Positions 6,428-41,496 of a stretch of 50,565 nt of DNA are shown here, one piece after another (position 1 is the stretch's first letter; every line of letters starts with the position of its first letter). Source of the stretch: Rickettsiales bacterium (GTDB lineage Bacteria > Pseudomonadota > Alphaproteobacteria > Rs-D84); contig JAIRRC010000016.1 of NCBI GenBank assembly GCA_031256175.1, positions 1 through 50,565 on the forward strand. The letters are read 5' to 3'. Below the pieces are notes generated by a model. That model saw only the letters and a program-made list of their open reading frames with translations, was not told the origin of the DNA and did no database searches. The position numbers were made by a program, and so were the translations under genes.

Positions 6428-6470
6428 AACCCTTGAAAAACCAAATTAGTCTGATATAGTGTCCGGCGAC

Positions 6471-6560
6471 GGACGGGTGGCAGAGCGGTTGATTGTACCG
6501 CACTCGAAATGCGGCATACTCGCAAGGGTATCGTGGGTTCAAATCCCACCCCGTCCGCCA
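6471..6560 (+). tRNA. tRNA-Ser(CGA)
   Basis: Acceptor GGACGGG/CCCGTCC, discriminator G, encoded CCA; anticodon arm CCGCA-CTCGAAA-TGCGG; long variable arm; GTTCAAATC T-loop. Confidence 0.97.
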
Positions 6561-6676
6561 GAATGTTTCCGTGCGTCATCCTTCGTTCCCTCGCGAGGCG
6601 CACCAACAATTCGCCACTAACAACGCGGCTCATTGGGTGCTTGTTCGCTCGTGCTCAAATCCCACCCCGTCCGCCA
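6561..6676 (+). mobile_element. tRNA-linked 94-bp structured element plus exact 22-bp duplicate of the tRNA-Ser 3' end
   Basis: 6655..6676 is identical to 6539..6560; internal sequence is homologous to 41186..41278 and 41380..41474. Mobility is inferred, not shown. Confidence 0.75.
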
Positions 6677-6777: not shown

Positions 6778-7281
6778 TCAGTTGGAAGGTTCTTTCAGGA
6801 TACCCTCCCTTAGCAAGGCGTCTTCAAGAAATTCATATTGTTTAAGGATAATCTTTTTATTAGGTTCGGCCAACATTTCTTTTGCATCTTTTTCAAGATT
6901 TTCCTCTATCCTTTGCAGGAACGCGTCATTGTTTCCCCTTTGCTTTGCCCTTCGTTTATATTCTTCTTTGCTATATATATTTGGAACGGCCAAAATGCAA
7001 TCCACACCTCTTTCCCTAAGCAAGTCATAAATAATTTTGCCCGGAGCTACCAAAACAACTTCGTATTTTTTCATGGCTTCGATAACCGCGTCGACATAAT
7101 TGTTCGGCCAATACGGATTTATTTCTCTTTGAGTGGATTTCAAGGATTCTGGTGGCATACTTTTCTGTTCATCAGTTAACAGATACTTATAATTCCCGCT
7201 TGCGATTTCTGTAACATTTTTATAATTTTCTATGATAAATGTTTTGCCCGCGCAAATCCACGCACTAATCACAAAACTCAT
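6778..7281 (-). CDS. Hypothetical P-loop nucleotide-kinase-like protein
   Basis: SAWICAGKT Walker-A-like N-terminus; ATG 7281 with AAGGA upstream, 1 nt after the fic stop; AT-rich; similar layout to 34447..34941. Confidence 0.7.
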   Translation of the reverse strand: MSFVISAWICAGKTFIIENYKNVTEIASGNYKYLLTDEQKSMPPESLKSTQREINPYWPNNYVDAVIEAMKKYEVVLVAPGKIIYDLLRERGVDCILAVPNIYSKEEYKRRAKQRGNNDAFLQRIEENLEKDAKEMLAEPNKKIILKQYEFLEDALLREGILKEPSN

Positions 7282-7282
7282 T

Positions 7283-7888
7283 TTATAGTTCCTTAGTTTT
7301 GAATTCGTCATATCCTTCGTAATAATAGCTGACGTCTATGCCTTTCATGAACAGCTCGCGCTCGTTTGTCCTGCCAGTCAAAGCGCCTTTTAGCAGGTGC
7401 TTTATCTCGGCGCTATTCACGGGACTGCGCTCCATCGCGGAAAGATAGGCCGCCTTGTCTATTTTGTTCCAGTTGACGACCTTCTTCAACTCTTTCTTCA
7501 ATATCAAGTCCAGCCATATACGCGTCGCGCGGCCGTTGCCTTCGCGGAAGGGGTGGGCGATATTCATCTCGACATACTTGTCGACAATCTCGTCGAAGGT
7601 CTTTTGCGGCATTTTGTCGATGTGCTTCAAAGATTGCGGCAGGTGCATGAGTGGAGCGAAACGGAAGCTGCTTTTGGCGATGTTCACGTCGCGTATTTTC
7701 CCGGCAAAGTCGTAAATCCCGCCGAATAGGAACTTGTGTATTTGGCACAAGCCGATGAAGGTGCCGACCTTCACCTTGTCGATTTTTCCGCTATCGAAGA
7801 AAATCCTTGCCTGCTGCTTGCTGATTTTCTCTTCTGTCTTGTTAAGTTCGACCTGATTCGCGATGTTTAATTTGTTTTTCAATACCAT
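7283..7888 (-). CDS. fic: Fic-domain AMPylase, class III (NmFic-like)
   Basis: Catalytic [12 protein letters not shown] and C-terminal inhibitory SYYYEG, which fits (S/T)xxxE(G/N). Confidence 0.93.
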
Positions 7889-12842: not shown

Positions 12843-13400
12843 ATGTTTTCGCTCAATCAATTTCCGCTGCCGTTCGCGCGCGGTTCCTTGGAACCTTATA
12901 TTTCCGAACGCACCATCGGCTTCCATTACGACAAGCACCTGGGCGGTTATATCGACAACCTTAACGCGCTTATAAAAAGCACGCAATTCGAGAACGCGCC
13001 GCTTGGCCAAATCATAAAGGAATCCGACGGAAAGGTTTTCAACAACGCCGCGCAGATTTTCAACCATGTTTTCTTTTTCGCCGGGCTGTCGAATTCGGAT
13101 GAAAAGATTCCCGCGGAAATTTCCTCCGCATTCAAAGATTTCAAATCCGAATTCAAGGCCGCCGCTTTATCCGTTTTCGGAAGCGGCTGGGTTTGGCTTG
13201 CGGACAACAGGGGCGCGCTTGAAATCATGACGACCGCAAACGCCGACACGCCGATGACGCGCGGCAGGAAGCCGCTGCTGGCGCTGGACGTTTGGGAGCA
13301 CGCCTATTATCTTGACTACCAAAACCGCCGCGGGGATTTCTGCGACGCTTTCCTGGACCATATTGTCAATTGGAAATTCGTCCTAAGCAATCTGAAATAA
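12843..13400 (+). CDS. sodB: Superoxide dismutase, Fe-type
   Basis: HYDKH, NNAAQIFNH, FGSGWVWL, DVWEHAYY; AAQ motif favours Fe. Confidence 0.95.
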   Translation: MFSLNQFPLPFARGSLEPYISERTIGFHYDKHLGGYIDNLNALIKSTQFENAPLGQIIKESDGKVFNNAAQIFNHVFFFAGLSNSDEKIPAEISSAFKDFKSEFKAAALSVFGSGWVWLADNRGALEIMTTANADTPMTRGRKPLLALDVWEHAYYLDYQNRRGDFCDAFLDHIVNWKFVLSNLK

Positions 13401-13444: not shown

Positions 13445-15328
13445 ATGTGGAACACAAAGGAAACCGGCGTGGCCGTATCGCTCAGCAATCGTATTTTCTC
13501 GGAATGTTTCCATGCGACCAGTTCCTTGGCCCGGGAAAAAGAGCTGCCAGGCCTCTGCTTCATAAATATTTACGACGACCGCGGATACAGGTATTACGAG
13601 GCGTCCGACAGATATATTCTTATAAGAAAGCGCGAGGAAATCCCCGAAGGCGAGGATGAGTTGTCCGAGCCAATTCGCATATTGCCGCAAAAGAAATACA
13701 TTTATCGCAGCAACGAGCTTATAGGGCGCTTCGTTCCCGACCCGGACGACATAATCAAGATAGATTATCCAAGTTTCGACGGGATAATTCCGCGGAACGG
13801 CAGCATATTCGACAAGGATGCCGCGAAGCCATGGATTTCCAAAAAGAATTTCAACGTCATAACGCACTTTTGGAAGTTGGATATATCCAAATTCTGGCTG
13901 CAAGCCGGAGAGGGCGACAACGGCTTTCTGGGCGGCCTAATCTATTACAAGGACGACGACATACAAGTGTGCTGCATGCTGCAACTGCCCATGAAGACGA
14001 TAGAAGTGCCCGTTCTGGACAAGGTGGAAAAAGTATCCGACGGAAACAAATTCACAATGGCCGGCTTGGAATTCGAGATGGACGCGCGGAGCGTTTTATC
14101 GACGCCGGATGAAATTCTTGCGGCGATTAAGAAGCTTATGCTCGAAAAGGGATTCGAAGAAGACGATGTCCACGGCCTTAACGAAGTTTTGAAGGAACTG
14201 GGTCTTACTTTGCGAGGGCCGGGGGCGAAGCCCGGCAAATACATTCCGCCGTCCAGCTCGTTCGAGGAATTCCGCGACAATGTCGACGCGGACAGAAAAA
14301 TGCTCAGCCAGTATATGCTGGCCGACAATTTGAAAATATCCTACGGGCCGTCAAAGACGCGCATAAGCAGTTTGGCCGAGGTTTTCACGGAACTTTATAT
14401 TTCCTTGAAATGCGATTCCTTGGAATCTTTCATGAAAAAGACGGGCGGCCTGTTTTCGGCGGCGCAGTTGGAATCAATCATGCGGGGCAGGGCTTATATA
14501 TCGCCCGCCGCATTCAAATACATCCGGCTTATGGCGGATTTCCACATAACGCCCAAAAAACTTTCGAAGCTCAACCTCGACGTCATAAAAAGCGAGAAGG
14601 CCGCGCGCTGCGTCGATGTCGACATGAAGCTGCTTGGCGAGCTGACGCGCAAGGCGGCGAAAATGCGCGCGCATATCCGTCGCGAAAAGCGCCGCGTCTA
14701 CAACCTCGAACGCAGGGAGACGAACAGGCGAAGCGGCAAGTATGAGAACATTTACGGCGACAAGACAAGCGTCACCCCATCCATGCGCGAATCCATCGAC
14801 AAGAGCCGCGCCAAGCGAAACGCGAAGAACGAGCTGGGCAAGAAAATCTGCCCCGCCGTCCGCATGTTCATGGATTTGAAAAAATCGCTAAGCTATACCA
14901 CCGAGAAAACATTCAACGACCTGGTGACCATAGGCCGCAACCGCTATATGCGAATTTGGCTCGATAAGGAAAGCGACGAAGAACATTACGATTTGGAAGG
15001 AGAGTTCCGCTACAAGCAGGTAAGCTGGAAGATGAAGCGCGTGTATGTGAAGTATAAACGCACGCATTCGTCCGAAGCCGCCGCAATACATTGCGACTTT
15101 CCGAACCATGGGCGGAAACCGCTTAAAGTGAAGACGACTTGTCCGGCCTTGCAAAACGCGGACTACACCCTTTGCCCGTTCTATAAAAACGCCGGATATA
15201 TTTACAATAAAGAATACGAGAAGTGCGAGATGGAAAGCTTTCTTCAAAGGTTCCGCGGCGAGGCCGAGGAAGTCTTGCAGCACTATATCGACAAGATAAA
15301 GGCCGAACACGAGCAAAAATCGCTTTAA
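13445..15328 (+). CDS. Hypothetical protein with a possible beta-clamp-like N-terminal domain
   Basis: 627-aa ORF; FHATSS..R..LPG, EASDRY, YPSFDGIIP, LQLPMK echo DnaN motifs; basic coiled-coil middle; Cys/His-rich C-terminus. Confidence 0.6.
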   Translation: MWNTKETGVAVSLSNRIFSECFHATSSLAREKELPGLCFINIYDDRGYRYYEASDRYILIRKREEIPEGEDELSEPIRILPQKKYIYRSNELIGRFVPDPDDIIKIDYPSFDGIIPRNGSIFDKDAAKPWISKKNFNVITHFWKLDISKFWLQAGEGDNGFLGGLIYYKDDDIQVCCMLQLPMKTIEVPVLDKVEKVSDGNKFTMAGLEFEMDARSVLSTPDEILAAIKKLMLEKGFEEDDVHGLNEVLKELGLTLRGPGAKPGKYIPPSSSFEEFRDNVDADRKMLSQYMLADNLKISYGPSKTRISSLAEVFTELYISLKCDSLESFMKKTGGLFSAAQLESIMRGRAYISPAAFKYIRLMADFHITPKKLSKLNLDVIKSEKAARCVDVDMKLLGELTRKAAKMRAHIRREKRRVYNLERRETNRRSGKYENIYGDKTSVTPSMRESIDKSRAKRNAKNELGKKICPAVRMFMDLKKSLSYTTEKTFNDLVTIGRNRYMRIWLDKESDEEHYDLEGEFRYKQVSWKMKRVYVKYKRTHSSEAAAIHCDFPNHGRKPLKVKTTCPALQNADYTLCPFYKNAGYIYNKEYEKCEMESFLQRFRGEAEEVLQHYIDKIKAEHEQKSL

Positions 15329-15412
15329 TAAAAGGGCTTGCATTATCCCGTTTTAATGCTAGGCTTTGTTCGAATGGGGATGCCGGAGAGAGCAAACCAA
15401 AAGGACCGCTCT

Positions 15413-16243
15413 ATGGGCGATATAATAATTGTCGGATACGGCAAGATGGGCAAAGAAATCCACAATGCCGCAAATTCCAGAAACGTCAAAGTCAGATTCG
15501 CAGTAGACCCGGTCGCAGACGCCTCGCCTTTCAATTTCCGCGAATTGGGAAAATTCCTTTCAACTTACAAATACGATTTGGGCGGGATGACCGCCGTCGA
15601 TTTCACAGAGCCCAAGTCCGCCTTGGACAACATCAAGCAATATTGCAAATACGGAATGAACTTCGTAATCGGCACCACCGGCGAATGGCGCAACGACCTC
15701 GACGCCGCGCGCAAGATGGTGGAAGACGCCGGAATCACCGCGGTTCACGGCTCGAACTTTTCGACCAAGGTCCATGTCTTCATGATTATGAACCGCGTGC
15801 TTGCATCCATGTTGAACGATATTCCGAACTTCGACGTGTCGATAGTCGAACGCCACCACCCGATGAAAAAAGACCCGTCCGGCACCGGAACCACCATGGC
15901 CAAGGACATAATATCCGCCGGGTATTTCGGAAAGACCGAACTGCTGACCGAGCTTGCAGGCGCGCTGGCCCCGAACCAAATCATGATGGCCGTGTCCCGC
16001 CTTGCCGGAATCGTAGGCGAGCATGAAATCAGATACACCGACGACGCGCGCGACGGAAGCGTCAAGAACGACACCATAACCATTTCCGAAGTCGCCGGGA
16101 ACCGCAGCGGTTTCGCCAACGGCGCTTTGGACGCGGTGAAATATATCGAAGAAAGCGGAAAGGCGGGCTTCGTCGATTACGCCGACGTGGTCATGGCGCG
16201 CTTCAAACCACTTATAATAAACGAATTGAACAGGAGCAAATAA
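15413..16243 (+). CDS. dapB: 4-hydroxy-tetrahydrodipicolinate reductase
   Basis: IVGYGKMG, DFTEP, VIGTTG, SNFS, ERHHPMKKDPSGT, GIVGEH; ATG 15413. Confidence 0.92.
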   Translation: MGDIIIVGYGKMGKEIHNAANSRNVKVRFAVDPVADASPFNFRELGKFLSTYKYDLGGMTAVDFTEPKSALDNIKQYCKYGMNFVIGTTGEWRNDLDAARKMVEDAGITAVHGSNFSTKVHVFMIMNRVLASMLNDIPNFDVSIVERHHPMKKDPSGTGTTMAKDIISAGYFGKTELLTELAGALAPNQIMMAVSRLAGIVGEHEIRYTDDARDGSVKNDTITISEVAGNRSGFANGALDAVKYIEESGKAGFVDYADVVMARFKPLIINELNRSK

Positions 16244-17190
16244 TGATAAAAGTTTTCATAGACGGACGCAACGGAACCACCGGGCTTAAAATAGACGAAA
16301 GGATGGCCGCGCGCGACGATGTCAGCGTCATGACCATACCGGACGAGCTTCGCAAAGACCCGGCCGAAAAGAAAAAATACATGAACGACGCAGACGTCGT
16401 GTTCCTTTGCCTTGACGACAAGGCCGCGATGGAATCGGTCGCGCTGGTCGAAAATCCCGACACCATAATCATCGACGCCAGCACGGCGCACCGCACAAAC
16501 CCGGACTGGGTCTACGGCTTTCCAGAACTTTGCGACGAACAGCGCGAGGCCATCGCGAATTCGAATAGCATCGCGAACCCGGGCTGCCATGCGACCGGTT
16601 TCATAAGCGTCGTTTATCCGCTTATCGTGGGCAACGTGGTTTCCGAAGAAAACACATTCACGTGCTTTTCCATAACGGGATATTCCGGCGGCGGGAAAAA
16701 CATGATTAAGGAATACGAGTCCGACGAGGCGGGAAAGCTCGACAGCCCCATGCCTTATGGACTTGCGAACCCGCTGAACCACAAGCACCTGCCGGAAATG
16801 AAGGCGATGTGCAGGCTGAAAAGTTCGCCGATATTCGTTCCGGTTCTTGGTAAAATCGCGCAGGGGATGAACACGATGGTCGCGATTGACTGCAAAGACA
16901 TCCTTTTCTATGGCGCGAAGGAAATCCACGAGGCGCTGTCCGACCATTATGCCGGAAAGACCTTCGTCAAGGTCATGCCGCTGGGCGGAGAAGACTTCCT
17001 TAATGCCGGAAGACTCGACGCGCAAAGATGCAACGGAACCAATAATCTGGAAATCTCCGTCTTCGGGCGCCAAGACCAGGCGCTGGTTTGCGCCGTGTTC
17101 GACAATCTGGGCAAGGGCGCTTCGGGCGCGGCCATTCAGAACATGAACATCGCGCTCGGCATCGCCGAAACCAAAGGTCTTGTGCGATAA
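16243..17190 (+). CDS. argC: N-acetyl-gamma-glutamyl-phosphate reductase (type 2)
   Basis: KVFIDGRNGTTGLKI, IANPGCHATG, DNLGKGASGAAIQNMN; overlaps the dapB stop. Confidence 0.95.
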   Translation: MIKVFIDGRNGTTGLKIDERMAARDDVSVMTIPDELRKDPAEKKKYMNDADVVFLCLDDKAAMESVALVENPDTIIIDASTAHRTNPDWVYGFPELCDEQREAIANSNSIANPGCHATGFISVVYPLIVGNVVSEENTFTCFSITGYSGGGKNMIKEYESDEAGKLDSPMPYGLANPLNHKHLPEMKAMCRLKSSPIFVPVLGKIAQGMNTMVAIDCKDILFYGAKEIHEALSDHYAGKTFVKVMPLGGEDFLNAGRLDAQRCNGTNNLEISVFGRQDQALVCAVFDNLGKGASGAAIQNMNIALGIAETKGLVR

Positions 17191-17196
17191 GGACCG

Positions 17197-17589
17197 CTAG
17201 CGGCGGAAGTGCATATTTCCGCCGCCATGAAATTCGCCGCCGTGCATGGCGCTGCCGCGGAAGCTGTCGCTACGGAAACTTTCCCCCTCGTAATTCGTGA
17301 AGTCGTGAATCGCGGGCGCGCCCGTATGCTCGCGCGCCAGGCTGCGACGCTCGTCCACGCCTATATCCATCCAGCGGTCGCGCGGAACGCCCGACCAAAG
17401 CAGGACCGCGTCGCCGCAATCAAGCCCAAGATAATTCCAATTCCCGACCATGCAATCGCCCAGCGCGTCGACGCCCGCGCAATATTCCTCTATCTCGGGC
17501 CCGCAGGCGTCCACGAACGGGTATTCGTAGAAGGCGCACGCCGGCGCCGCGAACGCGAAACAAAATAAAGAAGCCATAATCTTTTTCAT
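17197..17589 (-). CDS. Secreted small Cys-containing hypothetical protein
   Basis: Signal peptide MKKIMASLFCFAFAAPACA; C-x7-C-x8-C-x10-C pattern; Gly-rich tail. Confidence 0.7.
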   Translation of the reverse strand: MKKIMASLFCFAFAAPACAFYEYPFVDACGPEIEEYCAGVDALGDCMVGNWNYLGLDCGDAVLLWSGVPRDRWMDIGVDERRSLAREHTGAPAIHDFTNYEGESFRSDSFRGSAMHGGEFHGGGNMHFRR

Positions 17590-17675
17590 ACCGGGATTTT
17601 GCGCGAACCGAAACGTCCGCGCATCAGGAAGATAGTCTTAGTGCATGGCGGCGCGCGAAACGGCATAATCATCGT

Positions 17676-18203
17676 ATGGGAAAAATAATCAAACTAATAT
17701 TTTTATTCTCGTTCGCATTCGCGGTTCTTCCGGCGCGCGCTTGGGAGCTTGGCAGCAACACCATCCACGAGGGCGAGCGCATGGCGGCCGACCAGGCCGC
17801 ATACGAATGCGACGGCGCGAATATTTCGCCCGACCTTTTCTGGGGCGACGCGCCCGACGGCACGCGCAGCATGGCGCTTGTCATGCACGACCCGAGGGCA
17901 GCCAGCGCGGACGGATTCTATCACTGGATAATCGTCGACATACCCGAAAGCGTTCAAGGTTTCAGCATGGGCGAGAATTTTCTTCCGCCGATACGCGAAG
18001 TCGCCGGCGATTCAGGCATGCCCGGATATTACGGCGTCTGTCCGCCCGCGGGCAGCGGCAAGCATTTTTATGTTTTCACTTTATACGCCCTGAATGTGGA
18101 CAGACTTCATCTGGACGAGGCGGATACGCCCGCAGAGATTCACGATGTCATCAAATCGCACGCCATACATGCGACCCAGATAACGGCGACGTTCGAAAGG
18201 TAA
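17676..18203 (+). CDS. YbhB/YbcL (PEBP/Raf kinase inhibitor-like) periplasmic protein
   Basis: Signal peptide; NISPDLFW, MHDP, FYHW, GYYGVCPP, HFYVFTLYAL. Confidence 0.92.
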   Translation: MGKIIKLIFLFSFAFAVLPARAWELGSNTIHEGERMAADQAAYECDGANISPDLFWGDAPDGTRSMALVMHDPRAASADGFYHWIIVDIPESVQGFSMGENFLPPIREVAGDSGMPGYYGVCPPAGSGKHFYVFTLYALNVDRLHLDEADTPAEIHDVIKSHAIHATQITATFER

Positions 18204-18234
18204 AAAAACTCCCCCGGTTTCGGGGGAGTTTTTT
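18204..18234. terminator. Bidirectional intrinsic terminator
   Basis: AAAAACTCCCCC-GGTTTC-GGGGGAGTTTTTT between convergent genes. Confidence 0.85.
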
Positions 18235-18235
18235 G

Positions 18236-19825
18236 TTATTCCTCGCGGACGGGGAAGGCGCCGGCGTCCAGCATCTTCTTTATTTCGAAATGCTTTATCT
18301 TTTTCGCCGAGGTTTGCGGAAGCTCGTCTTCCGTAATCGCGAAATGTTTCACCCATTTATACGGCGCAATCATCAGGTTCGACGCCTTAATCAGCAGGCT
18401 TACCTTCGCAAGCGTCGTGCCGGGCGCGACTTGGAACACGCCGTAGGCCACGACTTTGCCTTTAATCGTGCGCTCCAACACCGCGGCCGCAAGGATGTCG
18501 TCGTTTTGCAGATACAGGTCTTCAAGCTCGTCCGGATAGACGTTCTTGCCGCTGTCCAGGACGATAATCTGCTTTCTGCGACCTTTCACAATCAGGCGGC
18601 CTTTGCCGTCGATTACGCCCAAGTCGCCGGATTTGAACCAGCCGTTTTCGAAGCTTTCGGCGTTCGCCTGCGGATTGTTCAGATAGCCTTTCATGACCAG
18701 GACGCCTTTAATCCAAATCTCGCCCACACCATTTTTATCCGGATTGTGGATTTTGATTTTGTTCCCGGGAAGCGGGCCAGCCCAATGGGTCTTTCCGTTT
18801 TCCAGCTGGAACTTGAAGTTGAAGTTTCCGGGGCCGGTCGTTTCCGTCAGGCCGAAGCAGTCGCCCACCACGAAGCCCAAACGTTCGAAGAACTTGCGTA
18901 TCGACGGCTTCAATGTCGCGCCGGCGGAAACCAAGACCTTCACGCGGCCGCCGAAGATTTCATGCACCGGCGCTTTGACTTTCCTTACCAATCCGCCAAG
19001 GCCGACCAGTTTCAAAAATCCCTGCGCCGCAAGCACTATGCGCATTATCGTGTATTTCTTCTTTTCCTTGGCGCCCGAGATTATCTTTTTATAGAAACCT
19101 TCCCATACGCGCGGCACCGCCGGTATCACGTGCGGCTTGTATTCCGCGAAGTCCTTCAAGAATTCCTTGGGGTTCAAGACCGGCTGAATCAGCAGCGAAC
19201 AGCGCAGCGCGACCGGCGCGATTATATTTATCACGACGCCGTATATATGATACAGCGGCAGGAAGCCGTAGAACATATAGCCCGGCTTGATGACCGCGCC
19301 GTAAAGCAAAACGCCTTCGGCCAGGCCGACCAGGTTGCCGTGCGTAAGCGGCACGATTTTCGGCGTGCCGGTGGTGCCGGATGTGAACGAAATCTGCGCT
19401 ATGTCCTCGCGGACGACGTCGGCGGCGACGAAGTCATCCTCGTTTTCCGCGTCGGGTTCCTCTATATCAATCATCTTGGTTTCGCCGCCATCGATGAAAT
19501 AGCCTTTCTGCGCCAGGGCCAGTTTGCAGCCCGCGATTTTCATCATGCTTGCGTGTTCGGTTTTGGACAGGCCGGTATCAAGCATAAGCGCCTGCGCGCC
19601 CTGCGACAATATCGCGAAATACGAGACCAGAAATTCCGCCGACGTGCCGGACAGCAACGCCACGCAGTCGCCCTTCTTTATATCGAATTTCTTCGCAAGC
19701 TTAACCGCGCGGATTTTCACCATGCTTAAAAGTTCGGCGTAGGTCTTCTGCGGCCGAACGAAGAAAGTGCTGGCGGCGTTCGATTTGCACGCCTCGGCCA
19801 GGACTTCGTAGATGTTCTTTATCAT
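18236..19825 (-). CDS. Long-chain fatty acid-CoA ligase (AMP-binding family)
   Basis: SFTSGTTGTPK, FGLTET, GWFKSGDLG, KGRRKQIIV..GKNVYPDELE. Confidence 0.92.
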   Translation of the reverse strand: MIKNIYEVLAEACKSNAASTFFVRPQKTYAELLSMVKIRAVKLAKKFDIKKGDCVALLSGTSAEFLVSYFAILSQGAQALMLDTGLSKTEHASMMKIAGCKLALAQKGYFIDGGETKMIDIEEPDAENEDDFVAADVVREDIAQISFTSGTTGTPKIVPLTHGNLVGLAEGVLLYGAVIKPGYMFYGFLPLYHIYGVVINIIAPVALRCSLLIQPVLNPKEFLKDFAEYKPHVIPAVPRVWEGFYKKIISGAKEKKKYTIMRIVLAAQGFLKLVGLGGLVRKVKAPVHEIFGGRVKVLVSAGATLKPSIRKFFERLGFVVGDCFGLTETTGPGNFNFKFQLENGKTHWAGPLPGNKIKIHNPDKNGVGEIWIKGVLVMKGYLNNPQANAESFENGWFKSGDLGVIDGKGRLIVKGRRKQIIVLDSGKNVYPDELEDLYLQNDDILAAAVLERTIKGKVVAYGVFQVAPGTTLAKVSLLIKASNLMIAPYKWVKHFAITEDELPQTSAKKIKHFEIKKMLDAGAFPVREE

Positions 19826-19991
19826 TTAATAGTTTCCTTTTTAGGTTTGTTTTTTGCCAGACCACGCAAGATTAGAACGAATTTTTCCGTCCTGCAATGG
19901 GAAATAATAGTGTTTGACAAAAATGCGGGCAGGTGCTAATGTTCCCATTAAGCCGGGGGTTCGGAGAGAAAAACCTGCAAGGGCAAGAAAC

Positions 19992-20795
19992 ATGACCGAC
20001 AATAAACCGGCGCTCAGCATCGTAAAAATCAGCGGCAAAAAATATGAAAACAAGGCGGACTTCGCGGAAACCGCGGCGGACTTCCATGCGCTTGCCGGAT
20101 ACAAGATATTAAGCCACGGCGCGGGCGTAGGCATTACGGAAGAATTGAAGAAACCCGAATACAGCGGGCTCGCGCTTCCCAATCCGCCCACAAAAGACGG
20201 GCTTCGCATAACGCCGGCCCCCGTTTTGGAAGTCGTCGAAAAAGTCGTGCTTGGCATAAACGAAGACATAACGAACACCCTTAACGGATTCTGCGACGGC
20301 CGCGTGGCTTATGTGGGCCATAAAAAGACCGGAATCTTGGTCAATTCGGAACAGATGCCGAAAGCTGCGGACGGAACGGACTTCGGATTCGTCGGCAAGA
20401 TATATCCGGGCTGCGTGTGTGTTTCCATGATAACCGAATTTCTTAGAAATAGTTTGTATCCGGTCATACACTGCCTGACTTCGAACAAAGACCGCGGCGG
20501 AATATGGAACACGAACGCCGACCATGTCGCCGAGGGAGTCGCCAGGGAACTGGGCAGATTCTTCGAAGTCGTCCTTTACATGCTGTCCGACGTTTCGGGC
20601 GTTCTGGACGCGGACAAGGAAATCATCCCCGAAATAACCAAAGAAAATTATCCGGCGCTTAAAGCGGCCGGCGTCATCACGGACGGCATGGCCGTCAAAT
20701 GCGAATCGATGCTGAACCTGGTCGCGGAAAGCAATATAAGCAAAATCATCATAACCAACAGGATAAGCAACGCCAACAGAACCATCGTAATGTAA
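19992..20795 (+). CDS. argB: Acetylglutamate kinase (divergent)
   Basis: VKISG, SHGAG, DFGFVG, NTNADHVA, LSDVSGVL, ITDGMAVK; ATG 19992. Confidence 0.8.
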   Translation: MTDNKPALSIVKISGKKYENKADFAETAADFHALAGYKILSHGAGVGITEELKKPEYSGLALPNPPTKDGLRITPAPVLEVVEKVVLGINEDITNTLNGFCDGRVAYVGHKKTGILVNSEQMPKAADGTDFGFVGKIYPGCVCVSMITEFLRNSLYPVIHCLTSNKDRGGIWNTNADHVAEGVARELGRFFEVVLYMLSDVSGVLDADKEIIPEITKENYPALKAAGVITDGMAVKCESMLNLVAESNISKIIITNRISNANRTIVM

Positions 20796-20807
20796 GGAGA
20801 GCGCGCC

Positions 20808-23800
20808 ATGCCAAGAAGCATTCACTTTTTCCAAAGCCAGACCGATTACAGGAAAATCTACGCGGTCGAAATCGAAAACGATTTCAATTCCGAAGAAGTC
20901 CGCAGGATGGAATGGCTTACCGGCGGCAAGGAGCTTCTTGAAAAGAGCGTCAAGCTTCACAAGCCGTTCGTCGGAACAATCAAAGAACGCCAAACCCCGC
21001 AATCGTCGTCTTCGACGGAAATCGCGGCGGGAATCGGCCTTGAAAAAATCGGACGCTTCGAGGAATACGCCCTTGCGGATTCGGATAATCCCGAATACGA
21101 CATAATGTTGCAGGAAGTCTATTCCGCGCTGGACCAGGGAATATTCACGACAGACCGAAAGGCCGAGCTGCAAAAGCCCGTCGAAGACATAGAAAAATTC
21201 GGCAAGACGCACGGGCTGGCGTTTTCGAAGGACGAAGTCGCGTATTTGGAAGGCTTGGCGAAAGAATACGGACGCGACCTGACCGACGCCGAAGTATATT
21301 GCTTCGCACAGGCGAATTCCGAGCACTGCCGCCATAAAATCTTCAACGCCGAATGGGAAATCGACGGCGAGAAACAGCCCAGCACCTTGTTCAGCATGAT
21401 AAAGGAAACGACCCTGGACCCGAACAGCCCCACCGGATACAAGGGCCTTGTGACCAACGCCTATAAAGACAACGCCGCGGCATTCAAAGGCTTTCACATG
21501 ATGCAATGGGTGAACGACGTCCTTGGCAATGCGGTCAAGAAGGAAACGGACGCCAACATCATCGCGAAAGCCGAAACGCACAACCATCCGACCGCGGTGT
21601 CCCCGGAACCCGGCGCGGCGACAGGAAGCGGCGGCGAAATCCGCGACAGGATATGCGTCGGGACGGGCTCGCACCCGTTGTCGGGAACGCTGGCGATTAT
21701 GACCAACAATTTGGATTGCGAATGGGAGCCGCTGTTCTCGTCCCCGGCGAAAATCCTGATAGAGGGCACGAACGGCGCGGCGCGCTTCTGCAACGAATAC
21801 GGGCAGCCGAACGTGAATTTCCGCGCCCTGACCTTCAACTATTCCGAATTCATCAACGGGAAGCAAATCAATTTCGGATACGGAAAGCCCGTGCTTCTCG
21901 CGGGCGGGACCGGATACGTCGACGAAAAGGACGCGCAGAAGGACGAAAGCCTTGTCGAAGAAGGCATGGTGATAGTAATGCTTGGCGGACCGAATTTCCT
22001 TATCGGCATGGGCGGCGGTTCCGCCGCGTCGGTCGCGGGCGGCACGCTGGATAAAAAAATAGACCGCTCGTCCGTCCAGCGCCATAATCCGGAAATGCAG
22101 GCGCGCTGCTACCGCGCTGTCCGCAGCTTCAAGGCTTCGGGCGGAGAGATAGTATCGATACACGACCACGGCGCAGGCGGACACTACAACTGCTTCGTCG
22201 AATTGGTGGAGGCGAAAGGCGGCAAAATATACATTTACAAGCTTCCCATCGGCGACCCGACTTTGTCGCCCATGCAGATTCTCGCCAACGAATCGCAAGA
22301 GCGCTTCGGCCTTCTTCTGCGCAAGTCGCAGCTTGAACTTTTCATGAAATGCGCGAAGCGCGAAGTCGCGCCGGCCCGCGACGTCGGGAGCATAACCGGC
22401 GACCATAGGTTCGTGTTCGAAAACGCCGACGGCACGCGCGCAGTCGACATGCCGCTGGCGGACATATTGAAGAATCCGCCCAAGACACTTATGACGGACA
22501 AAAGGATAAAATACGATTTTGCGCCCGTGAAATACGACGATTCGCGGGATTTCGAGAAAAACCTTATCAAGACGCTGGGGATGGTTTCGGTCGGAAGCAC
22601 CGACTGGTGGACCAACAAGGCCGACCGCTGCGTCAGCGGGCTTGTTCTGCAACAGCAATGCGTCGGCGAATTGCAGCTGCCGATATGCAACTACGGAATA
22701 ACGGCGTGCGATTACGAAACCGACGCCGGCACGGCGAGCACGATGGGATTCGCGCCGATAGCTTCGCTTATAGATTCGAAGGCGGGGACCCGTCTTGCGA
22801 TTCTCGACGCTATTCTGCCGCTGGCCTTCACGCCCGTCCGGGACGGATTGGAAAGCGTCATATTGTCGGCCAACTGGATGTGGCCTTGCGGGAACGAGGG
22901 CGAGAACGCGCGCCTTTACGACGCCGTGCAGGAAACCCGCGACACGTGCCTTGCCCTCGGCGTCAAGGTTCCGACCGGGAAAGACTCGCTCTCCATGACG
23001 CAGACATTGAAGGATAAAACCAGGGTCATGTCGCCCGGAACATCGGTCGTGTCCGCTTGGGCGGTCGCGGAAGGAATAGACAAGAAAGTCCTTCCCGTCA
23101 TGGACACCGAAACCGATTCATTCATAGTGCATCTGGACATGTCGGGATGTCCGGCCGCGCTTGGCGGGTCGGCCTTCGCGCAGTCGCTCGGCTTCGTCGG
23201 AAACGACGCGCCGGACGGCCAGGACATGGAACTTTTCAAGAAGGCGTTCGCCGCGGTTCAGGAAGCGTTGCAAAAAGGCCTTATACTTGCCGGGAACAAT
23301 ATCTCTTCCGGCGGGCTAATCGCCGCGCTGCTTAAAATGACCTTCGCGAACACAAGCGGCGGAATCGCCATAGGACCATACACACAGGACGCCGACATAT
23401 CCAAGAAGATGTTCGCGGAAAATCCCGGCGTCGTCATGCAGGTCGCGCGAAAGGACTTCCCCGCCTTCGCCGAGACAATGCGGAGGCACGGCGTCGGCCG
23501 CCAGTGCGAGCCAATCGCCCATCCCATCCGCGACAGGAAGCTTGTTATAGAGCAGGCCGGCCGGAATATCGAGATGGACATAGACGAGCTTCGCGACGCT
23601 TGGCACGCCCCGTCGGCAAGGCTGGAAGCCTTCCAGAACAAATGCGCGGACGAACGCAAAAAGAATATCTTCAAGCAGCCGCTTGTCGTAAACGACGCCG
23701 CGCGCAAGATGAAGTCGGTCAATATCATAAATCCGTCGGCCAGAAAAACGACTTGCGCGGTCATCCGCGAAAAAGGTGTCAACGGCGAAATCGAAATGCA

Positions 23801-41059: not shown

Positions 41060-41088
41060 TTGCAATTTCGTGGGGCGGCCGTTAGAAT
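41060..41088 (+). promoter_or_regulatory. Promoter of the tRNA-Leu/tRNA-Cys unit
   Basis: TTGCAA-N17-TAGAAT followed by a GC-containing discriminator region. Confidence 0.7.
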
Positions 41089-41100
41089 TGGGCGTGTTTT

Positions 41101-41185
41101 GCGGATATGGCGAAATTGGTAGACGCGCAGCACTAAGGATGCTGTGTCGAAAGACTTGGGAGTTCGAGTCTCCCTATCCGCACCA
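41101..41185 (+). tRNA. tRNA-Leu(AAG)
   Basis: Acceptor GCGGATA/TATCCGC, discriminator A, CCA; anticodon arm CAGCA-CTAAGGA-TGCTG; variable arm GTC-GAAA-GAC; T-arm GGGAG-TTCGAGT-CTCCC. Confidence 0.93.
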
Positions 41186-41300
41186 GAAGGCCTGTGCGTG
41201 CCTTCCCTCGTTCCCTCGCGACGCGCACATCTTTTCGCCGCTAACAACGCGGCTCAAAGTGTGCTTATTCGCTCGTGCTCGAGTCTCCCTATCCGCACCA
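41186..41300 (+). mobile_element. tRNA-linked 93-bp element plus exact 22-bp duplicate of the tRNA-Leu 3' end
   Basis: 41279..41300 is identical to 41164..41185; homologous to 6561..6654. Confidence 0.75.
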
Positions 41301-41305
41301 TGTTT

Positions 41306-41379
41306 GGCTCGGTGGCAGAGTGGTTATGCAGAGGACTGCAAATCCTTGTATGCCGGTTCGATTCCGACCCGGGCCTCCA
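41306..41379 (+). tRNA. tRNA-Cys(GCA)
   Basis: Acceptor GGCTCGG/CCGGGCC, discriminator T, CCA; anticodon loop CTGCAAA; one C-A mismatch in the T-stem. Confidence 0.95.
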
Positions 41380-41496
41380 AAATTTTGAAGTGCGCCATCC
41401 ATCGTTCTCTCGCGACACGCACATCAAAAAATCCCCTAATAACGGGGATTTTCTGTGCGCTTATACGCTCGTGCTCGATTCCGACCCGGGCCTCCA
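41380..41496 (+). mobile_element. tRNA-linked 95-bp element plus exact 22-bp duplicate of the tRNA-Cys 3' end
   Basis: 41475..41496 is identical to 41358..41379; shares all conserved blocks with the other two copies. Confidence 0.75.

Follow-up and report, generated by a model that had tools for sequence, protein, structure and literature searches.

Probable mobile elements of about 95 nt at tRNA gene ends in a Rickettsiales bacterium, with a 22-bp duplication of the gene end

Three tRNA genes are followed by copies of their own 3′ ends

We analysed a stretch of 50,565 nucleotides from a Rickettsiales bacterium (contig JAIRRC010000016.1), which we call the window. It holds three tRNA genes, for serine, leucine and cysteine, all found with ARAGORN and Rfam (Table 1). 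The neighbours are ordinary chromosomal genes: GroEL, PurL, PurH, CysS, an RND pump and HemW, plus a gene of the Fic/Doc family. Each tRNA gene is followed by an exact copy of its own last 22 nucleotides, from T55 in the T-loop to CCA76. The repeated sequence is specific to each tRNA (3/3 genes). Between the gene and the copy lie only 93–95 nt of non-coding DNA, which we call the element, with no integrase gene and no island cargo. The tRNA-Cys gene starts only 5 nt (TGTTT) past the distal tRNA-Leu repeat.

Every tRNA gene in the window has an element, and every element adjoins a tRNA gene (3/3 in both directions). Element motifs occur three times in the 50.5-kb window, compared to an expectation of 0.00–0.07, and a profile search finds no fourth copy there. 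The window contains no other exact direct repeats of at least 22 nt within 200 nt of each other. A preliminary description of the serine locus had set its limits at 6539–6676. The repeat check confirms these limits: they enclose the proximal 22-mer, the element and the distal copy. A tRNA intron at 54/55 was considered and dropped because the proximal gene is already complete.

As read, the duplication is 22 bp long; with the universal TC and CCA assigned to the element it is at least 17 bp. The lower bound follows from T55, C56 and CCA being universal in tRNAs.

Table 1. Coordinates of the tRNA genes, 22-nt repeats, elements and predicted signals (positions in the window)
Feature	Position	Strand	Basis
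Promoter-like site TTGAAA-16-TATAGT upstream of tRNA-Ser	6433..6460	+	
tRNA-Ser(CGA), intact host gene	6471..6560	+	ARAGORN; Rfam tRNA 55.4 bits; repeat check
Proximal 22-mer of tRNA-Ser (T55 to CCA76)	6539-6560	+	repeat check
Element, Ser copy, 94 nt	6561..6654	+	sequence, copy comparison, folding
Ser copy, 5′ A/T-rich variable part	6561-6570	+	
Ser copy, GTGCG	6571-6575	+	
Ser copy, tandem 8-mer block TCCTTCG/TTCCCTCG, then CGA; palindrome TCGCGA	palindrome 6591-6596	+	
Ser copy, central CGCAC	6599-6603	+	
Ser copy, enclosing stem GCACC/GGTGC	6600-6604 / 6636-6640	+	
Ser copy, 4-bp stem CAAT/ATTG	6607-6610 / 6632-6635	+	
Ser copy, apical stem GCCAC/GCGGC	6613-6617 / 6625-6629	+	
Ser copy, apical loop TAACAAC	6618-6624	+	
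Distal tRNA-Ser 3′-end copy, exact 22/22; native flank next	6655..6676	+	repeat check; contig L004
Promoter-like site TTGCAA-17-TAGAAT upstream of tRNA-Leu	41060..41088	+	
tRNA-Leu(AAG), intact	41101..41185	+	ARAGORN, Rfam, repeat check
Proximal 22-mer of tRNA-Leu	41164-41185	+	repeat check
Element, Leu copy, 93 nt	41186..41278	+	sequence, folding
Leu copy, stems GCACA/TGTGC, CTTT/AAAG and GCCGC/GCGGC; loop TAACAAC	loop 41242-41248	+	
Distal tRNA-Leu 3′-end copy, exact	41279..41300	+	repeat check
tRNA-Cys(GCA), intact	41306..41379	+	ARAGORN, Rfam, repeat check
Proximal 22-mer of tRNA-Cys	41358-41379	+	repeat check
Element, Cys copy, 95 nt	41380..41474	+	sequence, folding
Cys copy, apical stem AAAATCCCC/GGGGATTTT (long form AAAAAATCCCC/GGGGATTTT), loop TAATAAC	within 41380..41474	+	
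Cys copy, alternative pairing, 12 nt, 5′ region with central strand: TTTTGAAGTGCG/CGCACATCAAAA			
Distal tRNA-Cys 3′-end copy, exact	41475..41496	+	repeat check

Anatomy of the element

Read along the + strand, the element consists of an A/T-rich 5′ part, GTGCG, tandem 8-mers, CGCAC, a long irregular hairpin and the 3′ end CGCTCGTGC. The 5′ part is 7–10 nt long and differs among copies in length as well as in sequence. In the window copies and in contigs of the sequencing run X1 (see below) it reads GAATGTTTCC, GAAGGCCT, AAATTTTGAA, TTAATCC or AAATTCCC. The 3′ end is invariant among copies (6646–6654 in the Ser copy). Across copies the tandem 8-mer block has the form TCCNTCG/TTCYCTCG and leads into the palindrome TCGCGA.

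The hairpin comes in two forms. In the Ser and Leu copies it is built from GCACN, a bulge, 4 bp, UC/UC, 5 bp and the loop UAACAAC. In the Cys copy and in a fourth, partial copy from run X1 (apical hairpin AAAAATTTCC / TAATAAC / GGAAATTTTT) the upper hairpin is a continuous A/U-rich stem of 9–10 bp with the loop UAAUAAC. No terminal inverted repeats join both termini in any copy, and the left terminus is not conserved.

Relatives carry the same tRNA genes without the element

The closest HemW homologues share 65% and 57–59% identity with the HemW of the window, and three of the four are labelled as Alphaproteobacteria or Rickettsiales MAGs. In one relative (L013, 57% HemW identity) the gene order is conserved. 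Its tRNA-Leu(AAG) is near-identical and its tRNA-Cys(GCA) identical to that of the window. Both genes are empty: CCA is followed directly by native flank. For tRNA-Cys this flank is a hairpin-plus-T-run terminator of the kind found after the distal Cys 22-mer in the window. Further empty sites are tRNA-Cys in L010/L011 and tRNA-Gly in L016. At these four loci there is no second tRNA-end copy within 400 nt, and the element profile has no match in any relative.

An occupied site equals an empty site plus the element plus a 22-bp target duplication. Because relatives carry the same tRNA genes without the element or the duplicate, the element, judged by this comparison of sequences, is an insertion with a 22-bp target duplication.

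Copies behind other tRNA genes in a termite-gut metagenome

Nearly the whole locus is present in only one sequencing run, the termite-gut metagenome X1. An independently assembled Logan contig of this run (L004) contains the same tRNA-Ser, element and repeat with a few SNPs. In two other runs of the same study depth is present only at the tRNA-Ser gene and a short piece of downstream flank, and is zero over the element.

That the structure is an assembly artefact or a chance similarity is barely conceivable. Short-read assemblies do break at the repeat; L004 ends exactly at position 6676, and the X1 copies lie in unitigs of 49–236 nt. However, Logan contigs of X1, an independent run, span the full Ser and Cys structures, three differing copies sit in one 50-kb contig, and the motif count is far above chance.

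The element is more deeply covered than its surroundings. Summed contig depth in X1 is about 127–274 over the element core versus about 9–16 for individual flanking contigs, where summed depth adds up the mean word depths of all contigs placed there. This suggests roughly 10–20 element copies with a likeness of at least 80% in the near-identical strain in X1, an estimate from collapsed unitigs and not a count.

Some of these copies have different neighbours. Two further left junctions in X1 read ...GAATCCCCCAGCACCCACCA / TTAATCC-GTG... and ...GGTTCGAATCCGTGCGCCCCA-ACCA / GAAGG... (the slash marks the junction). For another copy both junctions are available, ...TCCTGCTGGGAACGCCA / AAATTCCC... 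on the left and TCGAGTC-CTGCTGGGAACGCCA on the right. Two more loose ends read TCAAATCC-GGCCGCCAAAACCA and TC-AAATCCCGTCATTCGCCCC. Together with Ser, Leu and Cys, the five loose ends of X1 give at least eight different host tRNA 3′ ends, with one orientation throughout. All evidence on the element comes from one organism and a near-identical strain. A 1709-nt X1 contig with an unlike 5′ part was considered as a longer or autonomous copy and rejected, as other divergent 5′ blocks were found.

Could the repeats be attL/attR scars of integrase islands, left by a T-loop crossover after the cargo was lost? Some integrases are known to cross over in the T-loop of tRNA genes (Williams 2002, reference 52 in PMC9897764), which gives an identity block from T-loop to CCA, and the block observed here is the one expected for such integrases. 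Like the element, these tyrosine integrases have the T-loop as their target, duplicate the same T-loop-to-CCA block and leave the tRNA intact. Partial copies of tRNA 3′ ends are also the usual mark of integrase integrations (PMC9897764). Nevertheless, we regard this origin as very unlikely. The block of an integrase is carried by attP and fits one tRNA, whereas here it is copied from each target. One 95-nt sequence lies behind at least eight different tRNAs, and an attP with the end of one tRNA would, at another tRNA, yield a gene that is chimeric or a distal copy that is foreign. Instead, both copies always equal the host tRNA (at the three window sites and at the one X1 copy with both junctions). 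Furthermore, TCGTG, which lies to the left of the distal T-loop, is no mimic of the T-stem, and an integrase gene and island remnants are absent.

The hairpin keeps its pairing while its letters change

An insertion with target duplication, the main point of our analysis, is absent from the preliminary description. Its claims on secondary structure fared as follows.

The apical hairpin was said to keep a TAA(C/T)AAC loop while its stem changes completely. The loop is indeed kept: four different apical stems carry one loop, which varies only at its fourth base (a C>T variant at 41245 is present on three X1 contigs). The complete change of the stem is true for the Cys copy but not for Ser versus Leu, which differ by one base; the Ser stem GCCAC/GCGGC contains one A.C mismatch. 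The enclosing stem covaries as described, with GCACC/GGUGC in Ser versus GCACA/UGUGC in Leu and Cys. The 4-bp stem is compensatory too, with CAAU/AUUG (Ser-type) versus CUUU/AAAG (Leu-type), each on several contigs. On five X1 contigs the changes to Ser-type letters at this stem, 41233 T>A, 41257 A>T and 41258 A>T, go together. The outer stem CGCGA/UCGUG does not vary among copies.

We counted pairs in an alignment of four sequences (three full copies and one partial copy) anchored on the loop. In the apical hairpin 82.6% of the cells are paired versus 58% in shuffles, and none of 500 shuffles reaches the observed value. When the partners are slid by 1–3 columns, pairing falls from 82.6% to 32–60%. 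Eight of the 12 apical pairs are altered on both sides, which 2 of 500 shuffles reach. Folded as a whole, the Leu and Cys copies are more stable than shuffles (z = −2.6 to −3.8), and the Ser copy is no better than shuffles (z = −0.01 on the + strand and −0.65 on the − strand). The claim that structure and not only sequence is kept is therefore largely supported, by compensatory changes in the apical hairpin, the 4-bp stem and GCACN/NGUGC. Palindromes can also stay perfect through template-switch mutation, which needs no selection; this counts against a mobile element.

The element can adopt two competing folds, as had been proposed: CGCAC (6599–6603) pairs either with the upstream GTGCG (6571–6575) or with the downstream GTGC. 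The upstream pairing is part of the minimum-energy fold in Ser and Cys, and the Leu copy has the long hairpin instead. Paired with the central strand of its own copy, the 5′ region reaches −10.5, −11.3 and −12.3 kcal/mol, compared to −7.0 to −8.4 kcal/mol in the six non-cognate combinations. With three copies, the cognate partner would be best in every row about once in 27 times by chance. The 5′ region co-varies with the central strand of its own copy, a suggestive observation only, which backs the idea of two folds.

Two further proposals on structure were rejected. The first was to tell the folded strand by counting wobbles and mismatches. On the + strand, the Ser apical stem, the stem of the Cys copy and its GC/AC step each have a mismatch that would be G.U on the − strand, and as RNA the − strand folds better by 4–8 kcal/mol. 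Two other stems, the invariant outer one and GCACN in one variant from X1, contain G.U on the + strand. Three cases favour minus and two plus, and we assign no strand. The second was a tRNA-like minihelix or T-arm made of the element and the distal 22-mer; they cannot form one, as TCGTG finds no partner in the 3′ strand of the T-stem.

The element as part of the tRNA precursor

Promoter-like sites are found only upstream of tRNA-Ser and tRNA-Leu, and none is found inside the element. By sequence reading, the distal Ser repeat and the distal Cys repeat are each followed by a terminator-like hairpin with a T-run. From these predicted signals we read Leu, element, Cys and element as one transcription unit. 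With promoters only upstream and terminators after the distal repeats, the + strand of the element would be part of the tRNA precursor. An insert between the tRNA and the terminator would hence be read from the tRNA promoter, and ordinary processing of the 3′ trailer would have to remove it. Right after CCA the bases are A/U-rich, which would suit cleavage of the RNase E type. Because of this removal, the insertion would be close to neutral for the host, which would explain why many tRNA genes are occupied.

The distal 22-mer had also been proposed to displace the native 3′ strand of the tRNA in the precursor. Thermodynamically this is possible. In the minimum-energy fold of the Leu-element-Cys precursor the 5′ acceptor strand of tRNA-Leu is paired with the distal copy, a mispairing that results from the duplication itself and hence is no sign of a function. 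In principle such misfolding could occur, but the native arm should have the advantage when folding is co-transcriptional.

In architecture, the nearest known counterpart is the E. coli tyrT/tyrV-rttR locus (RtT RNA, RF00391), where a tRNA gene, a spacer and an exact copy of the tRNA 3′ end, CCA included, follow one another. We read this locus directly in NC_000913: a 178-bp unit is present three times behind tRNA-Tyr, each ending in 19 nt identical to positions 58–76 of tRNA-Tyr, and rttR is annotated there as a small RNA. It is reported to take part in the processing of the tyrT transcript (preprint, bioRxiv 10.1101/2024.07.17.603846). In both systems the copy is co-transcribed with the tRNA, but it is 19 nt long (58–76) in E. 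coli and 22 nt long (55–76) here. In addition, E. coli has one tandem locus with one tRNA species, while here a dispersed family is found at no fewer than eight tRNAs with their own 3′ ends. The likeness is architectural only: the RtT covariance model (RF00391) is unlisted for both regions even at E up to 10.

Given this likeness, the element could be a trailer module selected by the host: a small RNA or a switch in tRNA maturation, spread by recombination among tRNA genes. As with RtT RNA in E. coli, processing via the distal tRNA-like 3′ end would release it from the tRNA transcript. The shared architecture and the co-varying two-state fold agree with such a module. So do the precursor fold, which can use the distal copy, and the distal 22-mers, which are perfectly conserved while the elements have diverged by 20–32%. 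We nevertheless find it doubtful, and less likely than the RNA-mediated route discussed below. The element is absent at all four nearest-relative tRNA loci examined, hence tRNA maturation does not depend on it. The sequence that flanks each copy is that of its own tRNA, as in a target duplication, whereas recombination would bring that of the donor. Finally, there is no homology to RtT.

The conserved distal repeats can be explained in two ways. Pairwise identity among the Ser, Leu and Cys copies of the element is 68–80%, and in the distal repeats 66 of 66 positions are unchanged. Possibly, young insertions have arisen from master copies that are old and diverse. Frequent slippage loss between the 22-mers would help to keep insertions young. 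Alternatively, selection may act on the distal 22-mer. This would favour a functional, RtT-like reading, and a function beyond selfish mobility.

How the element may insert

In our best reading of the sequences, the elements insert right after CCA and always in sense orientation, duplicate the last 22 bp (T55 to A76) and leave the host tRNA intact. As a whole, we think it probable that they are non-autonomous mobile elements of about 95 nt, specific to tRNA ends and mobilised in trans at staggered breaks.

The proposed mechanism is as follows. A trans-acting enzyme would recognise the universally conserved T-arm region of tRNA genes. It would cut one DNA strand at 54/55 and the other at 76/77, 22 bp apart. 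The element would be joined in, probably as a folded single strand, with the invariant 3′ end CGCTCGTGC and the hairpin loop as likely recognition features. Gap repair would then yield the duplication. The boundaries fall at the T-loop and at the end of CCA, where tRNA genes are most conserved, and this would let one enzyme target any tRNA gene and set its two breaks at a distance of 22 bp. We saw no transposase, integrase, reverse transcriptase or Cas1-like gene in the window. Recombinases and HUH enzymes make no duplication of this kind.

Is the intermediate DNA or RNA? We lean slightly towards DNA, for which we see close to even chances; RNA is possible but rather less likely.

For RNA, the route would be a SINE-like insertion. 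The element RNA, which would arise as the 3′ trailer of the tRNA, would be reverse-transcribed at a nick in the T-loop region (target-primed). The other strand would be cut after CCA, and synthesis of the second strand from the 3′-OH of CCA would lead to the 22-bp duplication. We consider this route unlikely, but a serious contender. It would account for the asymmetric ends (the 3′ end invariant, the 5′ end variable in length and sequence), the absence of terminal inverted repeats and the long target duplication. Insertion is always in sense orientation and within a strongly transcribed unit, and the left boundary matches the 3′ end of the mature tRNA exactly, which is a landmark of RNA. The structure of the single strand is conserved, and the + strand has G.U pairs in the invariant outer stem and in one GCACN variant.

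However, CCA is encoded in the genome in all copies seen, thus a boundary at CCA cannot tell an RNA route from a DNA route. The length of the duplication is fixed, and the variable 5′ part co-varies with the core. Since it is complementary to the central strand of its own copy, the 5′ part is templated and constrained rather than random filler, which argues against the SINE-like route. The three mismatches would be wobbles only on the − strand, and a reverse transcriptase was not seen in the window. We also know of no bacterial element that combines target-primed insertion with target duplications. A more specific version assumes a bacterial SINE-like retroelement that parasitises tRNA transcription units. 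Its trailer RNA would be freed by tRNA-processing enzymes and reinserted at further tRNA genes by target-primed reverse transcription in the conserved T-loop, with CCA priming the second strand and the two-state fold serving as a signal for the reverse transcriptase. This version is more unlikely still.

Comparison with known elements and distribution

With REP/REPIN sequences and elements derived from IS200/IS605 the element shares its shortness and its conserved hairpin, and these sequences are recognised as folded single strands. However, they are not known to make target duplications or to be tied to tRNA genes, and the element has a 22-bp duplication at 3/3 copies. The likeness to MITEs consists in a small, non-coding, multi-copy sequence with a target duplication, a hairpin-forming core and an enzyme acting in trans. 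MITEs have terminal inverted repeats of at least 10–15 bp and duplications of 2–10 bp (PMC11602168). The element, by contrast, lacks terminal inverted repeats, its duplication spans 22 bp, one of its ends is variable, and it is strictly specific to tRNA 3′ ends.

Dada DNA transposons, the Dictyostelium TRE and SINE/LINE systems likewise exploit what is conserved in multicopy RNA genes to land safely. The element resembles SINEs in its asymmetric ends and in the length of its duplication. Dada goes into the tRNA itself, at nucleotides 8–13 or in the anticodon stem, with 6–7-bp duplications (PMC8869645), and TRE inserts about 50 bp upstream via TFIIIC/TFIIIB (PMC3159450). Unlike the element, all these tRNA-targeting systems are eukaryotic.

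Searches of sequence collections did not yield relatives of the element. In Rfam only the three tRNAs pass the gathering threshold. At E up to 10, the matches are driven by the tRNAs or due to chance, among them a sub-threshold sX4 match (33.6 bits versus a threshold of 70) that spans the tRNA itself. Plasmids and phages gave no match with blastn, and viral contigs gave nothing with two looser patterns and one junction pattern. The strict pattern GTTCYCTCGCGA-gap-CGCTCGTGCTC has eight matches in GTDB representative genomes and JGI metagenomes. All are chance matches in coding DNA, and those that are named are from Actinobacteria. This pattern would miss diverged copies, and even copies in the same genome vary in that block, hence a restriction of the element to this lineage is provisional. 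In the literature we found no described bacterial element that is specific to tRNA ends. The element is best described as a miniature mobile element specific to tRNA ends, of a kind without a description in the libraries searched.

Consequences for tRNA genes and their annotation

The inserts make partial tRNA copies that confuse tRNA annotation. The repeats also break short-read assemblies exactly at tRNA genes, as observed here.

If the element is mobile, as we infer, it targets the generic shape or sequence of tRNA gene ends and not one specific tRNA. To our knowledge, no earlier bacterial miniature element with such generic tRNA-end targeting is known. The tRNA gene would be regenerated through an unusually long duplication with a fixed length of 22 bp. 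This would imply that the T-arm is read either by an enzyme whose two active sites are two helical turns apart or in a route via reverse transcription. The shared order of tRNA, spacer and tRNA end also offers a possible origin for the long-unexplained tyrT/rttR repeats of E. coli.

Divergent elements with exact distal copies of the tRNA end

The three element copies behind the tRNA genes share only 68-80% pairwise identity. In contrast, the distal 22-mer, the non-functional second copy of the tRNA 3' end that follows each element, matches its own tRNA at 22 of 22 positions in all three copies. Either the insertions are far younger than the element family, or the distal 22-mer is maintained by selection or gene conversion. 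For the Leu-element-Cys precursor (41101-41379), the fold of minimum energy has the tRNA-Leu acceptor stem closed by the distal and not by the proximal 3' strand, although the signal for this fold is weak (z = -1.5).

The conserved 5' block of the element consists of two 8-mers in tandem, which lead directly into the palindrome TCGCGA. The block could serve as a protein-binding site.

A different 5' part is found in X1, a termite-gut metagenome run containing a near-identical strain. On a 1709-nt contig from this run, placed on 41407-41476 of the window, the match to the Cys-type element starts only at CTCTCGCGAC, and the 30 nt upstream of it (CCCTCAATTTCTTATTCATGGCCCGTCGGC) differ from the usual 5' block. 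This copy probably represents a divergent subfamily; a longer or 5'-rearranged form of the element is a possible alternative.

Coordinates and sequences of the features (window positions unless another sequence is named)
Feature	Location	Strand	Sequence or remark
Element, Ser copy	6561-6654		
Element, Leu copy	41186-41278		
Element, Cys copy	41380-41474		
Distal 22-mer, Ser	6655-6676		
Distal 22-mer, Leu	41279-41300		
Distal 22-mer, Cys	41475-41496		
Tandem 8-mers, Leu copy	41203-41218		exact TTCCCTCG TTCCCTCG
Tandem 8-mers, Ser copy	6583-6594 (equivalent region)		TCCTTCG/TTCCCTCG
Tandem 8-mers, Cys copy			TCCATCG/TTCTCTCG
tRNA-following palindromic repeat	L013 (relative) 13003-13045; X1 loose ends		ATTTTGCCCAAGC...GCTTGG..CAAAAT
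tRNA-following palindromic repeat	L016 (relative) 15300-15350	-	CAATTTTCC...GGAAAATTG
Fic/DOC-family gene, 201 aa	7283-7888	-	just downstream of tRNA-Ser locus
177-aa ORF	6778-7311	-	no Pfam match; overlapped by Fic/DOC-family gene

Other features near the tRNA genes

A second palindromic repeat, distinct from the element, lies 3' of tRNA genes in the lineage of the window and in its relatives. A search of the window for this repeat found none; in X1, two tRNAs that carry the element have it after their distal 22-mer.

The Fic/DOC-family gene and the 177-aa ORF may constitute a toxin-antitoxin-like pair, and nothing connects them with the element. In the closest relative (L010), the 5' side of tRNA-Cys adjoins a non-coding stretch of about 670 nt in which TTCCCTG motifs recur (14053-14720). 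Restriction-modification genes and a KAP NTPase gene lie beyond (14723-20996), and the region looks like an island adjacent to the tRNA gene.

Effects on assembly

The short-read assembly of X1 breaks at these loci. The contig with the tRNA-Ser copy (Logan contig L004, 5953 nt) stops exactly where the distal 22-mer ends, and the element copies of the run are collapsed to unitigs of 49-236 nt. Elements like these are expected to fragment MAGs at tRNA genes and to be under-represented in assemblies.
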